Origin: a virus
Taxonomy: Duplodnaviria > Caudoviricetes
Virus record (IMG/VR): IMGVR_UViG_3300028048_000055
Coordinates: 32,001 to 96,000 of that record
DNA: 64,000 nucleotides
Reading direction: 5' to 3' (one strand)
Below, piece after piece: positions 9,922 to 19,930 of this stretch (position 1 is its first letter; each line of letters opens with the position of its first letter). The translations under genes and the position numbers were made by a program. The notes beneath the pieces were generated by a model. The model was not told the origin of the DNA. It saw nothing but the letters and a program-made list of their open reading frames with translations, and did not search any database.

Positions 9922-10269
9922 ATGAATTTCAGTTATATTAATGATGATTTTGAATTAGAAGCATCTTTTACAAGTAATGATGCATTAAATGCATTTAATA
10001 AAAAGATTGTAGAATTTGCATATTATAATGATAAAACTCATACTGATTTCCGTGGTAAGCCATATATTAAGTTTGAATATAGTAAAGGTAATGAATTAGT
10101 TCTCTGCGGTAAAGATACTGATCAGCTAATTGAAATTCTTAATATGTTCAATGATGTTATGATTAATTCTAGTGAACTTAATAAGTATAATATTGAAACA
10201 TATAAAGAATATGTACGGAAAGCTGCAAAAGAAGAAAAAGAAAACGGAATAAAAATTATTTCATGGTAA
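9922..10269 (+). CDS. hypothetical protein
   Basis: AGGAG SD before ATG 9922. Confidence 0.65.
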   Translation: MNFSYINDDFELEASFTSNDALNAFNKKIVEFAYYNDKTHTDFRGKPYIKFEYSKGNELVLCGKDTDQLIEILNMFNDVMINSSELNKYNIETYKEYVRKAAKEEKENGIKIISW

Positions 10270-10272
10270 GGG

Positions 10273-10301
10273 TTTACAAAACAAGAAATAATTACTATAT
10301 T
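10273..10301 (+). promoter_or_regulatory. sigma70-like phage promoter
   Basis: TTTACA-N17-TATATT. Confidence 0.7.
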
Positions 10302-10307
10302 ATATGA

Positions 10308-10438
10308 TGTTGATTGTGAATGTCTGATAGACGATCAATAAAATGAAGTAAGAACAGTTGTTAGTGGTTAACCTGCAAATTACCGGTAGGTCTGGTCTTA
10401 CATGAGGGTGACGAATCGGTATTCCTTCAAGACATTCT
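10308..10438 (+). ncRNA. unidentified structured RNA
   Basis: ORF-free segment after a promoter; GAATGTCT/AGACATTC closing stem. Confidence 0.35.
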
Positions 10439-10451
10439 TTAAAAATAGGGG

Positions 10452-10480
10452 TTTACAAAACAAGAAAAAATTTCTATATT
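10452..10480 (+). promoter_or_regulatory. promoter of tRNA block 1
   Basis: TTTACA-N17-TATATT. Confidence 0.75.
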
Positions 10481-10542
10481 AATCAACGTAAAAACGAAAA
10501 ATGAAAAAAAGTTTTTATATATAATATAAAATGAGGATGAAA

Positions 10543-10605
10543 ATGCAATTAGTAATAACAACAAACATGACACCAGTCAATAATCCAAAGGTAACTTTCG
10601 ATTAG
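10543..10605 (+). CDS. attenuator leader peptide 1 (MQLVITTNMTPVNNPKVTFD)
   Basis: GAGGA SD; T/N/V/P/M-rich; followed by a terminator and Asn/Thr/Met/Pro/Val tRNAs. Confidence 0.8.
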   Translation: MQLVITTNMTPVNNPKVTFD

Positions 10606-10631
10606 TTTGTTTCATTACTCGATTTCATTTG

Positions 10632-10666
10632 AATCCTGTATGAGACAAACTCAAACAGGATTTTTT
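10632..10666 (+). terminator. attenuator terminator 1
   Basis: AATCCTGT/ACAGGATT stem plus T tract; competing pairing 10604-10615 with 10640-10651. Confidence 0.8.
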
Positions 10667-10680
10667 AATTTTCCTTTTAT

Positions 10681-10994
10681 TGTTCCATAGCTCAGTTGGT
10701 AGAGCGACGGACTGTTTGAAATAGACACTTATATTGGAAACGATATATGAAAATCATCGCTAAGTCGGTGAAACCTGTAAAATGGCAACGCCGAGCAAGG
10801 ATTAGAAATAATCTATGTGTAGAGACTTTATACGATGAGCCTAAGTCAGTAATGATATGGCTAAGACAAAGTCCAGACTACAAACGAGTGTCCAATTTGC
10901 GCGGTGGGGGGCTTAACACCCATGCGGATGCTTGGTAACGAAAGTTATAGTAGTATGAATCCGTTGGTCCCTGGTTCGAGTCCAGGTGGAACAG
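10681..10994 (+). tRNA. tRNA-Asn(GTT), interrupted by a group I intron
   Basis: exons 10681-10716 and 10958-10994 rebuild the cloverleaf (ACGGA-CTGTTAA-TCCGT; TGTTCCA/TGGAACA). Confidence 0.9.
10717..10957 (+). mobile_element. group I intron (no ORF) in the tRNA-Asn anticodon loop
   Basis: P/Q/R/S-like core (TCGGTGAAAC, GGCAACGCCGAGCAAG, GTAGAGACT, AAGACAAAGTCC); U before the 5' splice site and terminal G. Confidence 0.85.
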
Positions 10995-11135
10995 CTAACA
11001 CTTAGACAGTAATTGTTCATTGTTACAACGTTATTGTTACGCACGATGAAATTCATGCAAGTTTGGAATCGACAATATTTTGTTAATTCTGGGTAAAGTT
11101 TCAATGAATAGCGGGTGATTATTATCTAAGTAGAT

Positions 11136-11208
11136 GCTGATGTAGCACAGCTGGTAGTGCAGCGGCTTTGTAATCCGCAGGTCGGGGGTTCGGATCCCTC
11201 CATCAGCG
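11136..11208 (+). tRNA. tRNA-Thr(TGT)
   Basis: cloverleaf, loop TTTGTAA. Confidence 0.9.
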
Positions 11209-11398
11209 CTAAAAATATTGTTAGGCGTTATTTAGAAGCTGCAGACTCTTTATAATGCTAAGCCGGGTGCAGCAACGGGATGTCAGCTGCGGGAAGAGCT
11301 GGTATAATCAGAGACCTCCAGTAACAATATAATTTTTACATTAGGTGGTAGTCCACTAGGAAGTTGGATCTCCTTTAAACCAACAAAAGAGAATTTAT

Positions 11399-11482
11399 CG
11401 CGGGATAGTCTAATGGTAAGATATTGGGCTCATAACCCAAGGACTGGTAAAGCTTGTCTCGGTTCGACTCCGAGTCCCGCTA
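11399..11482 (+). tRNA. tRNA-Met(CAT), initiator-like, long variable region
   Basis: unpaired 1:72, GGG/CCC anticodon stem, loop CTCATAA. Confidence 0.8.
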
Positions 11483-11521
11483 TAGTTTAGAGCAGTGGTT
11501 AGCTTATATTATAAATATTAT

Positions 11522-12280
11522 ATGGAATTAAAAATAAAACATATATGTAAATTTTGTAATATGGAGTTTACTACTGGGGCACAATTAGGAACACATATTT
11601 CTAAACAATGTCTTAAAAATCCAAATAGAGGAATACAAAAGAATTCTAAAATTTGGAAATGTTCAATTTGTGGTAATGATTTTCTTTCACGAAGAAGATT
11701 ACAACAGCATCGCAAAGATGAACATATTAACGAAATTAAAAGCAAATACTATGGGTATCATCCGATATTGAATATACCTTGTCAATTTTGCGGTTTAATT
11801 TGTAAAAGAGCTCGTGATTTAACAAGACATGAAAAATTTTGCAAAGAAAACCCAAATAAACAAATTTGGCAAGGACATAAAACTTCGGATGAAACTAAAA
11901 AGAAATTATCAGAAGCGGCTATTAAAAATCTTAGTGGTACACATTGTAATTGGTTAAATAAAAAGAAATCTTATGCTGAAGAATATTTTGAAACTATATT
12001 TACAAATGCTGAATCACAATATCAAGTTGGAAGATACGTATTAGATTTTGCATGGACTAAATCAAAAATTTATATTGAAGTTGATGGTGAACAGCATTAT
12101 ACTAAAGAAGGTATCGAACACGATAAGATTAGGACAGAATTTTTAATAGAAAATGGTTGGAGACTTTTAAAAAGAATTAGATGGTCTGAATTTCAAAAAC
12201 TTTCTAAAGCTGAACGTGAAAATGAAATTTATAGATTATTACAGACTATCAAAATTCAAGAAGAAACTAAAACGTTATGA
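11522..12280 (+). CDS. Zn-finger + NUMOD3-like + DUF559/Vsr-like putative homing endonuclease
   Basis: C2H2/CxxC repeats, HKTSDETKKKLS, LDFAW...IEVDGEQHY; TATAAATA-N4-ATG. Confidence 0.8.
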   Translation: MELKIKHICKFCNMEFTTGAQLGTHISKQCLKNPNRGIQKNSKIWKCSICGNDFLSRRRLQQHRKDEHINEIKSKYYGYHPILNIPCQFCGLICKRARDLTRHEKFCKENPNKQIWQGHKTSDETKKKLSEAAIKNLSGTHCNWLNKKKSYAEEYFETIFTNAESQYQVGRYVLDFAWTKSKIYIEVDGEQHYTKEGIEHDKIRTEFLIENGWRLLKRIRWSEFQKLSKAERENEIYRLLQTIKIQEETKTL

Positions 12281-12318
12281 TCGTAGTCGGTCGGTGGTGG
12301 AACCACCTAAAAAACTTG

Positions 12319-12392
12319 CGGAGTGTAGCTCAGCCTGGTAGAGCATCTGCTTTGGGAGCAGAGGGTCGTGAGTTCGAATCTCGCTACTCCGA
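12319..12392 (+). tRNA. tRNA-Pro(TGG)
   Basis: canonical cloverleaf. Confidence 0.92.
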
Positions 12393-12395
12393 TAA

Positions 12396-12458
12396 AAGAC
12401 ATAGGAAGTTCCTATTAATGAATATTTTTTAGGCAAATAAAATTATACTTCCCGTCTT
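12396..12458 (+). ncRNA. UCCUAU scaffold copy 1 (TAG anticodon-like stem-loop cargo)
   Basis: AAGAC-ATA-GGAAGT-TCCTAT...TAC-TTCC-C-GTCTT. Confidence 0.75.
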
Positions 12459-12460
12459 AA

Positions 12461-12535
12461 CTCTCCTTCGCCTAGCTGGTCATGGCACTTGCCTTACAAG
12501 CAAGCAAAACCTTGGTTCAAATCCAAGAGGGGAGA
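12461..12535 (+). tRNA. tRNA-Val(TAC)
   Basis: cloverleaf, loop CTTACAA. Confidence 0.85.
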
Positions 12536-12541
12536 TAAAAA

Positions 12542-12660
12542 TATAGCATAGGTAGTTCCTATTACTAAGCGTATAGCTCAACTGGTGGAGCAGTTACCGA
12601 AAGGTAAAAGGTTGTCGGTTCGAATCCGATTGTGCTTGCCATTCGATACTACCCGCTATA
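12542..12660 (+). ncRNA. UCCUAU scaffold copy 2 carrying an anticodon-less tRNA mimic (GAAA loop, CCA end)
   Basis: TATAGC-ATA-GGTAGT-TCCTAT...TAC-TACC-C-GCTATA enclosing tRNA-like 12567-12641. Confidence 0.8.
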
Positions 12661-12670
12661 AGGGTTTAAC

Positions 12671-12739
12671 GGCATAAGACGTTCCTATTTAGCTCATGTG
12701 AGCGTTTGATTGATATTCAAAAGGTTATTACGTCTCGCC
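12671..12739 (+). ncRNA. UCCUAU scaffold copy 3 (mini D-arm + GAT/Ile anticodon arm)
   Basis: GGC-ATA-AGACGT-TCCTAT...TAC-GTCT-C-GCC; TTTGA-TTGATAT-TCAAA. Confidence 0.8.
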
Positions 12740-12796
12740 AAACTTTTAACAAAAAGAGAACAAACAAAAACATAAATAAACAAAAGAGAAAATAAA

Positions 12797-12862
12797 ATGA
12801 CTTACGTTATGAACACAAATAATACCAACCCTAATAATAACCCTGAGGTTCTACAGGATTAG
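12797..12862 (+). CDS. attenuator leader peptide 2 (MTYVMNTNNTNPNNNPEVLQD)
   Basis: 7 Asn, 3 Thr, 2 Pro; precedes a terminator and Asn/Pro/Thr tRNAs. Confidence 0.85.
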   Translation: MTYVMNTNNTNPNNNPEVLQD

Positions 12863-12894
12863 TTTTGTTTCATAACTTGATGAATTTTTAAACT

Positions 12895-12934
12895 GGATCC
12901 TGTAAGATATTAGAACTTACAGGATTTCTTTTTT
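12895..12934 (+). terminator. attenuator terminator 2
   Basis: ATCCTGTAAG/CTTACAGGAT plus T tract; TACAGGATTAGTTT over the stop codon competes. Confidence 0.85.
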
Positions 12935-12936
12935 AT

Positions 12937-13021
12937 TCTAGTGTACCCGAGTTGGTAGCAGGGGGAGGACTGTTAATCCTTTGGCGAAAGCCCGTCGCAC
13001 GTCCGAGTCGTGCCACTAGAG
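12937..13021 (+). tRNA. tRNA-Asn(GTT) with long variable arm
   Basis: TCTAGTG/CACTAGA acceptor, loop CTGTTAA, GGC-GAAA-GCC extra arm. Confidence 0.8.
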
Positions 13022-13030
13022 CTAAATTAT

Positions 13031-13114
13031 TGGTAGGTACCCGAGTGGTAGCAGGGGGCGGCCTGTTAAGCCGTTGGCGAAAGCCCGTCGTTGGTTCGAA
13101 TCCAACGTGGACAG
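13031..13114 (+). tRNA. tRNA-Asn(GTT), poorly paired acceptor stem (possible pseudo-tRNA)
   Basis: D, anticodon and T arms intact; TGGTAGG/GTGGACA mismatched. Confidence 0.6.
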
Positions 13115-13123
13115 CTAAAATAT

Positions 13124-13203
13124 TGTCTTGTGGCGGAATTGGTAAACGCACTGCACTGTTAATGCAGCACTTCGGTTTGTAGGTTCGATGCCTACCAAGA
13201 CAG
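13124..13203 (+). tRNA. tRNA-Asn(GTT)
   Basis: TGTCTTG/CAAGACA acceptor, loop CTGTTAA. Confidence 0.8.
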
Positions 13204-13213
13204 TTAGATAAAA

Positions 13214-13286
13214 CAGAATGTAGCTCAGATGGCAGAGCGCACCGTTCGGGGCGGTGAGGCCGGAGGATCGTAACCTCTCATTCTGA
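13214..13286 (+). tRNA. tRNA-Pro(CGG)
   Basis: CACCG-TTCGGGG-CGGTG. Confidence 0.8.
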
Positions 13287-13294
13287 TAAAATAA

Positions 13295-13367
13295 CAGGGT
13301 GTAGGCTAGTTGGTTAGTCGCATGGCCTGGGACCATGTTCACGCAAGTTCGAATCTTGCCACCCTGA
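13295..13367 (+). tRNA. tRNA-Pro(TGG) with C33
   Basis: CATGG-CCTGGGA-CCATG. Confidence 0.75.
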
Positions 13368-13403
13368 TACAACCGAGCACTCTGACTGTATTATAAATAT
13401 AAT

Positions 13404-14039
13404 ATGAATGAATATATATGTAAATTTTGCGGTAAGATTTGTAAAAACATAAATTCTTTAAAAAATCATGAAAGATTATGTAAATTAAATCCTAATAGAC
13501 AAATATCGCCATTTGTAAAATATAATGCAGAGCATGAAACAAGTTGGAATAAAGGGCTTACAAAAGAAAATGATGAAAGAGTTAAGCAAATGGCTGAAAC
13601 TATGAGTCAAAAAATAAGAGCAGGCCTAATACATAACTATGATCATCAAAAAGTATGGACAGAAGAACGTAGAAAAGCACAATCTGAAAGGAAAAAGAAA
13701 TTTTATGAAGAACACCCAGAAAAGCATCCTAATAGCTTAGTAGCTGGTGCACTTAATAAAATGACATATCCTGAAAAATTAGTTACTGAATATTTAAAAG
13801 AACATAATATAACAGCAGAACATAATTGGTATTTTAAAACAGAAAAATTTACAAGATATATAGATTTTTATATAGATGAATTAAAATTATTTATTGAAGT
13901 TGATGGAGAATATTGGCACAAAGATAAACAAAAAGATATTGATAAAGATAATGATGCATTAATGTATGGTTATAAAACATTAAGGTTAAAACCAAAAACA
14001 GTTATAACACAATTAAATGAATTTTTTAATATGGCATAG
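13404..14039 (+). CDS. Zn-finger + DUF559/Vsr-like putative homing endonuclease
   Basis: YICKFCGK...HERLC, WNKGLTKE, IDFY...IEVDGEYWH. Confidence 0.8.
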   Translation: MNEYICKFCGKICKNINSLKNHERLCKLNPNRQISPFVKYNAEHETSWNKGLTKENDERVKQMAETMSQKIRAGLIHNYDHQKVWTEERRKAQSERKKKFYEEHPEKHPNSLVAGALNKMTYPEKLVTEYLKEHNITAEHNWYFKTEKFTRYIDFYIDELKLFIEVDGEYWHKDKQKDIDKDNDALMYGYKTLRLKPKTVITQLNEFFNMA

Positions 14040-14098
14040 GAAGTTCCTATTAGCTCAATGAGCATTTGATTGTTAATCAAAAGGTTTTACTTCCCGCC
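14033..14098 (+). ncRNA. UCCUAU scaffold copy 4 (mini D-arm + GTT/Asn anticodon arm)
   Basis: GGC-ATA-GGAAGT-TCCTAT...TAC-TTCC-C-GCC; TTTGA-TTGTTAA-TCAAA. Confidence 0.8.
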
Positions 14099-14109
14099 TA
14101 AATTTTTTA

Positions 14110-14180
14110 GCTTCTATAATTCAATGGTAAAATGCCGGTTTAGTAGTCCGGATTTCTTGGTTCGAGTCCAGGTGGAAGCG
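14110..14180 (+). tRNA. tRNA-Thr(AGT)
   Basis: GCTTCTA/TGGAAGC acceptor; loop TTAGTAG. Confidence 0.7.
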
Positions 14181-14222
14181 TAAAAATCTAAACTTCTGCT
14201 CTACCGAATTTATAAATATAAT

Positions 14223-14882
14223 ATGGAAGAAAATTATATTTGTAAATTTTGTGGGAAACAATGTAAAAATGCTAATTCTTTACGAAATCACGAAAGATTT
14301 TGTAAAGAAAACCCTGAACACCAAGAATCTCCATGGATAAAATTTAATCATGAACGAGGCGCTTGGAATAAAGGATTAACTAAAGATACGGATGAACGTA
14401 TTAAAAAACGTAGCGAAACATTTTCAAAACGCTATAAAGGCACTGAAGAAGGGAAACGAATTTTTAGTCATCCGCAATCTGAAGAACATAAACAAAAAAT
14501 GCGTAAAATTGCAACAGAAAGACATTGGGGCGGTTGGCATACCTCAAAATCTATTGAATTTAATGGTATAAATTTAGATTCTAGTTATGAAGTTGAAGTA
14601 GCAAATCAACTTAATGAAAATAAAATAAAATGGGAAAGACCTACTTATTTTCTATGGGAAGATACTAATGGAGTAAAACATCGTTATTATCCTGATTTTT
14701 ATCTTCCAGAATATAATGTATATCTTGACCCAAAAAATGATTATTTAATAAATAATAAATCTAAAAAATTTGGTATTACTGATGTTGAAAAAATAATGAA
14801 AGTTGAACAACAAAATGGAATACGTATAATTATTTTAGATAAAGATAATTTAACATGGGAAAACATTAAAGAAAAGATTTAA
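14223..14882 (+). CDS. Zn-finger + PD-(D/E)xK putative homing endonuclease
   Basis: same N-terminal Zn finger as 13404; DSSYE...YYPDFYL...DPK. Confidence 0.75.
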   Translation: MEENYICKFCGKQCKNANSLRNHERFCKENPEHQESPWIKFNHERGAWNKGLTKDTDERIKKRSETFSKRYKGTEEGKRIFSHPQSEEHKQKMRKIATERHWGGWHTSKSIEFNGINLDSSYEVEVANQLNENKIKWERPTYFLWEDTNGVKHRYYPDFYLPEYNVYLDPKNDYLINNKSKKFGITDVEKIMKVEQQNGIRIIILDKDNLTWENIKEKI

Positions 14883-19901: not shown

Positions 19902-19930
19902 TTTACAAGAGTTAAATAATTTACTATATT
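19902..19930 (+). promoter_or_regulatory. promoter of tRNA block 4
   Basis: TTTACA-N17-TATATT. Confidence 0.75.

Follow-up and report, generated by a model that had tools for sequence, protein, structure and literature searches.

Results

A tRNA block preceded by a leader ORF and an intrinsic terminator

The stretch of DNA analysed here (the window, 64,000 nt) corresponds to bases 32001–96000 of a 165-kb IMG/VR virus record, for which CheckV gives a completeness of 40%, and has a G+C content of ~30%. By ARAGORN and Rfam, the window contains at least 38 tRNA genes on the + strand between 10.6 and 31.3 kb, with homing-endonuclease-like ORFs interspersed among them. We call the source a huge phage because related complete records with terminal repeats measure 411–424 kb. 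The long ORFs of the phage end in TAA (29), TAG (10) or TGA (4), and since all three stops are in use the standard code fits. A megablast search of GenBank phages with positions 10200–14200 returned only tRNA-Pro fragments. A TerL-like ORF, used as a single-protein query against viral contigs, found no relatives, and compared directly with the related complete genomes it showed only 31–36% identity.

Within this array, a short leader ORF (12797–12862) and an intrinsic terminator (12895–12934), both on the + strand, stand directly before a block of tRNA genes on the same strand. We refer to this element as attenuator 2 (att2) and to the genes behind it as block 2. The first genes 3' of the terminator are three tRNA-Asn(GUU) genes (12937–13022, ~13031–13116 and 13123–13204). 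These are followed by tRNA-Pro(CGG) and tRNA-Pro(UGG) (13214–13367; ARAGORN and Rfam) and by tRNA-Thr(AGU) (14110–14180; ARAGORN), with a homing-endonuclease-like ORF (13404–14039) between the Pro genes and Thr. ARAGORN called the Asn genes at 12937 and 13123, Pro(CGG) at 13214, Pro(TGG) at 13295 and Thr(AGT) at 14110, and the tRNA-Asn at ~13031–13116 rests on a partial Rfam tRNA match with a CTGTTAA anticodon loop. Together, these calls confirm the three Asn, two Pro and Thr(AGT) genes that an earlier reading, made from the sequence only, had placed downstream of att2.

Unusually for tRNA-Asn, all three tRNA-Asn(GUU) genes (12937–13204; 82–86 nt) carry long variable arms. Two of them have a D-arm motif that is present in 15 viral contigs, in ten of these within an unrelated context. 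In ten other viral contigs with a class-II tRNA-Asn, no such leader was seen in the 330 nt upstream, indicating that the class-II tRNA-Asn travels independently of the attenuator, and this type of tRNA looks mobile among phages. Three endonuclease-like ORFs (11495–12280, 13404–14039 and 14223–14882) lie between the tRNA genes of blocks 1 and 2, and their presence varies among relatives. The first two match endonuclease or homing-endonuclease families in PHROG, and the third has a zinc-finger-like N-terminus in common with the ORF at 13404–14039.

The leader is rich in Asn, Thr and Pro codons

The leader ORF begins with an ATG at 12797 and comprises 21 codons and a TAG stop (translation MTYVMNTNNTNPNNNPEVLQD). 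Its translation bears out the seven Asn, three Thr and two Pro residues previously reported for it. The Asn codons start at 12812, 12818, 12821, 12827, 12833, 12836 and 12839 and thus sit among codons 6–15. Judged against the phage's own amino-acid usage, Asn, Thr and Pro account for 12 of the 20 leader codons versus 16.6% expected (P = 1.5e-5), and the seven Asn by themselves have P = 7e-4. When the leader was compared with all ATG-ORFs of 15–40 codons in the six frames of the window (435 ORFs), it ranked first both by its fraction of Asn (0.35, with the next at 0.26) and by its combined fraction of Asn, Thr and Pro (0.60, with the next at 0.40). The core of the leader contains no Lys, no His and only one Gln. 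A weak SD-like sequence, AAGAGA, is found at 12784–12789, 7 nt 5' of the ATG; the SD duplex of −2.9 kcal/mol, compared to a median of −3.7 kcal/mol for the long ORFs of the phage, is weak and within the phage's range.

The window contains six such leader ORFs, which we re-derived and scored each against each tRNA block. The true leader-to-block assignment was the best of the 720 permutations. At the level of single codons the match is looser. The Pro codons of the att2 leader are CCT, with no CCG, and the Pro tRNAs of the block are CGG and UGG. AAC makes up three of the seven Asn codons versus 14% in the phage's genes, and the ACT codon of the leader fits tRNA-Thr(AGU).

The stop codon lies in a strand that competes with the terminator

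The terminator consists of a 12-bp stem with a 9-nt loop (5' arm 12895–12906, loop 12907–12915, 3' arm 12916–12927; local energy −14 kcal/mol), followed by TTTCTTTTTT, a U tract that ends at 12934. Only 3 nt separate this end from the first tRNA-Asn at 12937, leaving no room for a promoter. A generic terminator pattern scan returned mostly chance terminators, and a simple terminator scan, which allows loops of 3–8 nt only, missed the att2 terminator because of its 9-nt loop.

The alternative structure, the antiterminator, is formed by two strands, both encoded on the + strand. Its 5' strand (12853–12865; ACAGGATTAGTTT, RNA ACAGGAUUAGUUU) contains the TAG stop at 12860–12862, and its 3' strand (12890–12903; AAACTGGATCCTGT, RNA AAACUGGAUCCUGU) has nine bases in common with the terminator 5' arm. 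The two strands form 13 pairs with one bulged G. This agrees with the previous proposal that a segment spanning the stop pairs with the terminator 5' arm, and the pairing is stronger than expected by chance: the duplex between the upstream RNA of att2 and the terminator 5' arm plus loop, the portion of the terminator that is transcribed ahead of its 3' arm, has an energy of −19.8 kcal/mol, and none of 1000 dinucleotide shuffles gave one as strong. In the orthologue of G002, one of the related complete genomes, pairing to the terminator 5' arm alone exceeded all 1000 shuffles. In this genome the antiterminator 5' strand can be extended to 12842–12866; the outer extension (AGGUUCU with AGAACUU) is not kept in relatives and was dropped from the conserved switch. 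A small hairpin followed by a U stretch (UUCAU-AACUUG-AUGAA, then UUUUU; 12869–12889, + strand) folds between the two antiterminator strands, and att2-type relatives keep its stem and vary its loop. We infer that it is possibly a polymerase pause site.

The position of a ribosome on the leader determined which structure was predicted when the RNA was folded under constraint. With a ribosome footprint at the att2 stop, none of the 13 antiterminator pairs and 11 of the 12 terminator pairs formed. With the ribosome at Asn codons 8–11, all 13 antiterminator pairs were present and no terminator pair of the 12 remained. The outcome was ambiguous for a ribosome at Asn codons 13–15, where the antiterminator forms first and the full transcript favours the terminator. 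In the free RNA, with no ribosome, the minimum-energy fold is the antiterminator, and a 1:2-like pairing (12806–12818 with 12868–12879) appeared in the centroid fold only, not in the minimum-energy fold. Because read-through is predicted in the absence of a ribosome, there would be no trp-like default termination, and the design would need efficient translation of the leader.

The layout is conserved among related phages

Pattern scans of IMG/VR viral contigs detected an att2-like element in at least eight of them, and 13 metagenome contigs also carry it; a search of viral contigs with a back-translated leader motif from another genome (NTNNTNPTNP) gave no match. Three of the viral contigs that bear the element are complete at 411–424 kb, namely G001, G002 and the record behind locus L207 (class D). 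The leaders of these relatives fall into four classes: the att1 type (MQ[LS][VI][VI]TTN[MVI]TPVNNPKVTFD), the att2 type (MT[YF][VT]MNTN(N)TNPNNNPEVLQD), the G002 type (M(IM)LFMNTTTNPTNNNPEVLQD) and the class D type (MTFTMNTNTVNPNNPEVLQD). Wherever the sequence 3' of a copy can be read, it contains a tRNA-Asn(GUU), followed by Pro and Thr where the contig continues. The tRNA-Asn is within ~80 nt of the attenuator in most copies (24 of 25 copies at 18 loci, the 25th lying ~100 nt from its contig end), and in two genome types one extra tRNA-like stretch comes first.

Within the leader classes, changes are mostly synonymous at the third position (AAC/AAT, ACC/ACG/ACT, GTT/GTG/GTA, GAA/GAG and TTC/TTT). 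The single leader indel, of 3 nt and in frame, takes out one complete Asn codon. Replacements that distinguish the classes mostly exchange Asn, Thr and Pro for one another (N to T, T to N, N to P and P to T), such that the composition is kept and the order is not. The six codons from the last Asn codon to the stop are kept in all classes, including att1.

Across the 12–13 distinct att2-type sequences, the terminator is paired in 97% and the antiterminator in 95% of cells. Of the alignment columns, 80% vary in the loop, 38% in the spacer and 8–17% in the arms, and no column varies in the antiterminator 5' strand, which is invariant in 13 sequences. We found no compensatory base-pair changes in either helix in these 12–13 sequences, only one-sided, wobble-compatible ones. 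Invariance of the stems is expected because the terminator 5' arm pairs with two partners, one of which also encodes LQD-stop. Covariation is thus uninformative here, and the support for the helices is conservation only.

Attenuator 2 lies behind att1, and no consensus promoter is found close to it

A second attenuator, att1 (10452–10666, + strand), is located upstream of att2 and comprises a promoter (10452–10480), a leader (10543–10605) and a terminator (10631–10663). The sequence-only reading had noted no such promoter before att2, and indeed, the 160 nt that precede att2 contain no TT[TG]ACA-N16-18-TATATT promoter. Among the five remaining leaders of the window, four do have a consensus promoter within 160 nt, and for leader 4 the nearest is at 19902, ~220 nt upstream. 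Upstream of att2, att1 supplies the only consensus promoter. This holds in five of the six contigs that carry both attenuators, the remaining one having an extra promoter inside block 1, and this supports the earlier suggestion that att2, without a promoter of its own, stands in series with att1.

Alignment of att1 (10543–10666) with att2 revealed blocks that both have in common in the same order, GATTAG-TTT(T)GTTTCAT-AC, ATCCTGTA and ACAGGATTT. This supports the duplication that had been suggested from their similarity and also refines it, as two other genome types possess an orthologue of att2 that bears a promoter, and att1 is a diverged paralogue. Those two types, the G002 type and class D, carry att2-type leaders with their own promoter and AT box. 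Att2 is therefore the form with the wide distribution, and its lack of a promoter is confined to this lineage. From this comparison, att2 is a nested orthologue that lost its promoter, and att1, its paralogue, is a diverged copy; Val, Ile and Met codons were gained in the att1 leader, and the att1 block includes tRNAs for Val and Met. In the class D record (L207 3060–3140, IMGVR_UViG_3300023371_000061, 411 kb), an Asn-Pro-Thr-Met-Val block lies directly 3' of a consensus promoter with no leader and no terminator. L207 3060–3140 is a natural unattenuated variant of block 1, and attenuation is thus dispensable for such blocks.

The 5' UTR of the att2 leader (12734–12796, + strand) is homologous to the UTRs of the other leaders and is without their promoter; its TTATATATAATATAAA box has decayed. 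The exact TTATATATAATATAAA box occurs in the 165-kb record only in four leader 5' UTRs (10515, 17007, 20096 and 25351), with three one-mismatch copies elsewhere. It could be a translation enhancer or a second promoter, and its role is unresolved. Upstream of this UTR is a structured spacer (12661–12733, + strand; GGC-AUA-AGACGU-UCCUAU ... U-ACGUCU-C-GCC), which ends ~64 nt before the leader. Its inner stem differs in relatives with complementarity kept in the alignment, and we infer that the spacer may set or protect the 5' end of a leader RNA that has no promoter of its own. A motif, CATARGNNGTTCCTATT, is present in seven copies, all on the + strand in tRNA arrays (12400, 12547, 12673, 14035, 20371, 29619 and 29725), against 0.02 expected; the copy at 12673 opens the stem structure of the spacer.

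Several other features were noted between the two attenuators. An extended −10-type promoter-like site (11280–11308; ATGTCA-N17-TATAAT with a preceding TG) lies between the tRNA-Thr and tRNA-Met of block 1 and, if active, would bypass att1 and not att2. The tRNA-Asn(GUU) behind att1 (10681–11003) has its anticodon loop split by a ~245-nt insert, which weakly matches the Rfam group I intron family (RF00028, 27.7 bits, below the gathering score of 50). Of the near-identical relatives, L233 and L023 have this tRNA-Asn without the insert and L014 has it with the insert. Finally, a tRNA-like gene at 12567–12641 could not be assigned by ARAGORN; it has a GAAA loop on its anticodon arm and an encoded 3' CCA.

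Discussion

Att2 has the defining features of an attenuator that can be computed: an apparently translated, codon-matched short ORF, a terminator, a mutually exclusive antiterminator that carries the stop, and a layout that is conserved in every relative found. We therefore favour, with a probability of roughly 60%, the interpretation that att2 is a ribosome-mediated (leader-peptide) attenuator for the demand-controlled synthesis of three Asn, two Pro and one Thr tRNA. The anatomy, statistics and conservation of att2 are observed, and the regulation, including leader translation, ribosome stalling, regulated termination and action in series with att1, is inferred from them.

In the model that we propose, RNA polymerase would arrive from upstream, here most likely from the att1 promoter, and transcribe the 21-codon leader, which a ribosome would translate as the RNA emerges. 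When Asn-, Thr- and Pro-tRNAs are plentiful, the ribosome would reach the TAG and cover ACAGGAUUAGUUU, the 12-bp terminator would form, and transcription would end 3 nt before the first tRNA-Asn. If instead the ribosome is slow at the seven Asn codons, or at the Thr or Pro codons, ACAGGAUUAGUUU would be left free to pair with the terminator 5' arm ahead of 3' arm synthesis, and polymerase would enter the tRNA genes. The predicted outcome is negative feedback, in which tRNAs are made when their own codons are decoded slowly.

A broader interpretation, which we put forward tentatively and with somewhat less than even confidence, is that att2 is the second tier of a demand-sensing network in which the phage gates each tRNA block by a leader written in that block's codons. 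Block 2 would then be subject to two serial codon tests, first att1 (T/N/P/V/M) and then att2 (N/T/P). If this were true, the phage would gauge the decoding capacity of the host in real time and replace exactly the tRNAs that are missing, for example when host anticodon nucleases deplete them.

The alternative that fares best, though we think it unlikely, is that codons are not sensed and that the hairpin, as a constitutive, partly leaky terminator or through a role in processing or stability, merely sets the dose of block 2, with the ORF kept for another reason such as a small peptide or an unstructured A/C-rich RNA. The absence of covariation in the helices leaves room for this, as do the tendency of A/C-rich stretches to encode N, T, P, K, Q and H and the related genome that runs the sister block without a leader. 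However the leader core contains 12 N/T/P codons with no K or H and one Q, and its amino-acid replacements stay within N/T/P, while the six leaders match their own blocks in the best of 720 assignments and, in all att2-type classes, the strand competing with the terminator includes the stop.

We consider it improbable that att2 serves mainly in temporal control, as an independent unit with a phage-specific middle or late promoter around CATAAATA (12773–12780) and with the leader and hairpin acting mainly as an insulator against read-through from block 1. Such a promoter would account for the lack of a sigma-70-like one, and CATAAATAAA is kept in the att2 copies. But positions 12773–12780 align with the AT box of the other leaders, which is found almost only in leader UTRs, 3' of promoters, and thus is not a general promoter motif of the genome. 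Furthermore, no late-promoter consensus is known for this phage, and the codon content of the leader would be left unexplained.

More doubtful still is a sensor other than the ribosome, either uncharged tRNA, as in a T-box, or an RNA-binding protein with the conserved GAUUAGUUU(U)GUUUCAU as its site. The 16–17-nt block that is identical in att1 and att2 even though their antiterminator partners differ could be taken to point to such a ligand, but in att1 this conserved block is itself an antiterminator strand. In addition, Rfam returned no T-box or other family at E ≤ 1, the element 3' of the stop is only ~70 nt long, and the UGGN bulge, a potential partner for the 3' end of a tRNA, is found in this window only and is UGAA in relatives. 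It is hardly credible that the ORF and the pairing coincide by chance in an AT-rich spacer: the ORF is short and the genome has 30% G+C, but the composition, pairing and small-ORF statistics and the conservation in more than 20 contigs all speak against it. No rival explains the codon content, the stop position and the system-wide matching together.

To our knowledge, the genes known to be under leader-peptide attenuation are those of amino-acid biosynthesis operons and of a synthetase operon, and not tRNA genes. Full-text literature searches turned up nothing on tRNA genes, whether of phages or of bacteria, under the control of a leader peptide, and nothing on phage tRNA arrays governed by an attenuator. 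If our interpretation of att2 as a ribosome-mediated attenuator is correct, it would sense the speed of the ribosome on given codons and put out the very tRNAs by which those codons are read. No feedback loop could be shorter, and phages could tune their translation capacity codon by codon. Such control would shed light on how huge phages handle their dozens of tRNA genes, would provide a natural set of codon-specific translation-speed sensors, and bears on the arms race over tRNA-cleaving host defences. The natural variants, att2 with and without its own promoter and the sister block with and without a leader, allow comparison.

Leader-peptide transcription attenuators control enterobacterial amino-acid operons (trpL, hisL, pheL and leuL, and the multivalent thrL and ilvL) and pheST (pheM). 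Like these, att2 has a short ORF dense in regulatory codons, the translation of which is inferred, a mutually exclusive antiterminator and terminator, with the intrinsic terminator just before the regulated genes, and a proposed sensor that is the position of the ribosome; and like thrL, which reads Thr and Ile, it would read several amino acids (Asn, Thr and Pro). It differs from them in that the regulated genes are tRNAs and not enzymes or a synthetase, such that the output would act directly on the quantity that is sensed, and in that it is found in a phage. Moreover, att2 shows no more than three evident segments and has its stop within the antiterminator 5' strand, and the predicted default without translation is read-through and not termination. 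Unlike the enterobacterial attenuators, att2 is also promoter-less and lies inside a tRNA array behind a paralogous attenuator.

T-box RNAs need no ORF and are 200–300 nt long; their specifier loop and conserved T-box bulge bind the uncharged tRNA directly. The logic inferred for att2 resembles theirs, in that the choice between terminator and antiterminator, made upstream of translation-related genes, depends on the state of a tRNA. We nonetheless rejected a T-box reading of att2: none of the T-box features is present, a search of 9000–33000 against Rfam at E ≤ 1 gave no T-box and no leader family matching att2, the element is too short, and the UGG of its bulge is not conserved. The setting of att2 is a familiar one, in that tRNA arrays interspersed with homing-endonuclease genes are also borne by T4, T5 and huge phages, as in the tRNA cluster of T4 with its homing-endonuclease gene segB (PMC2330249).
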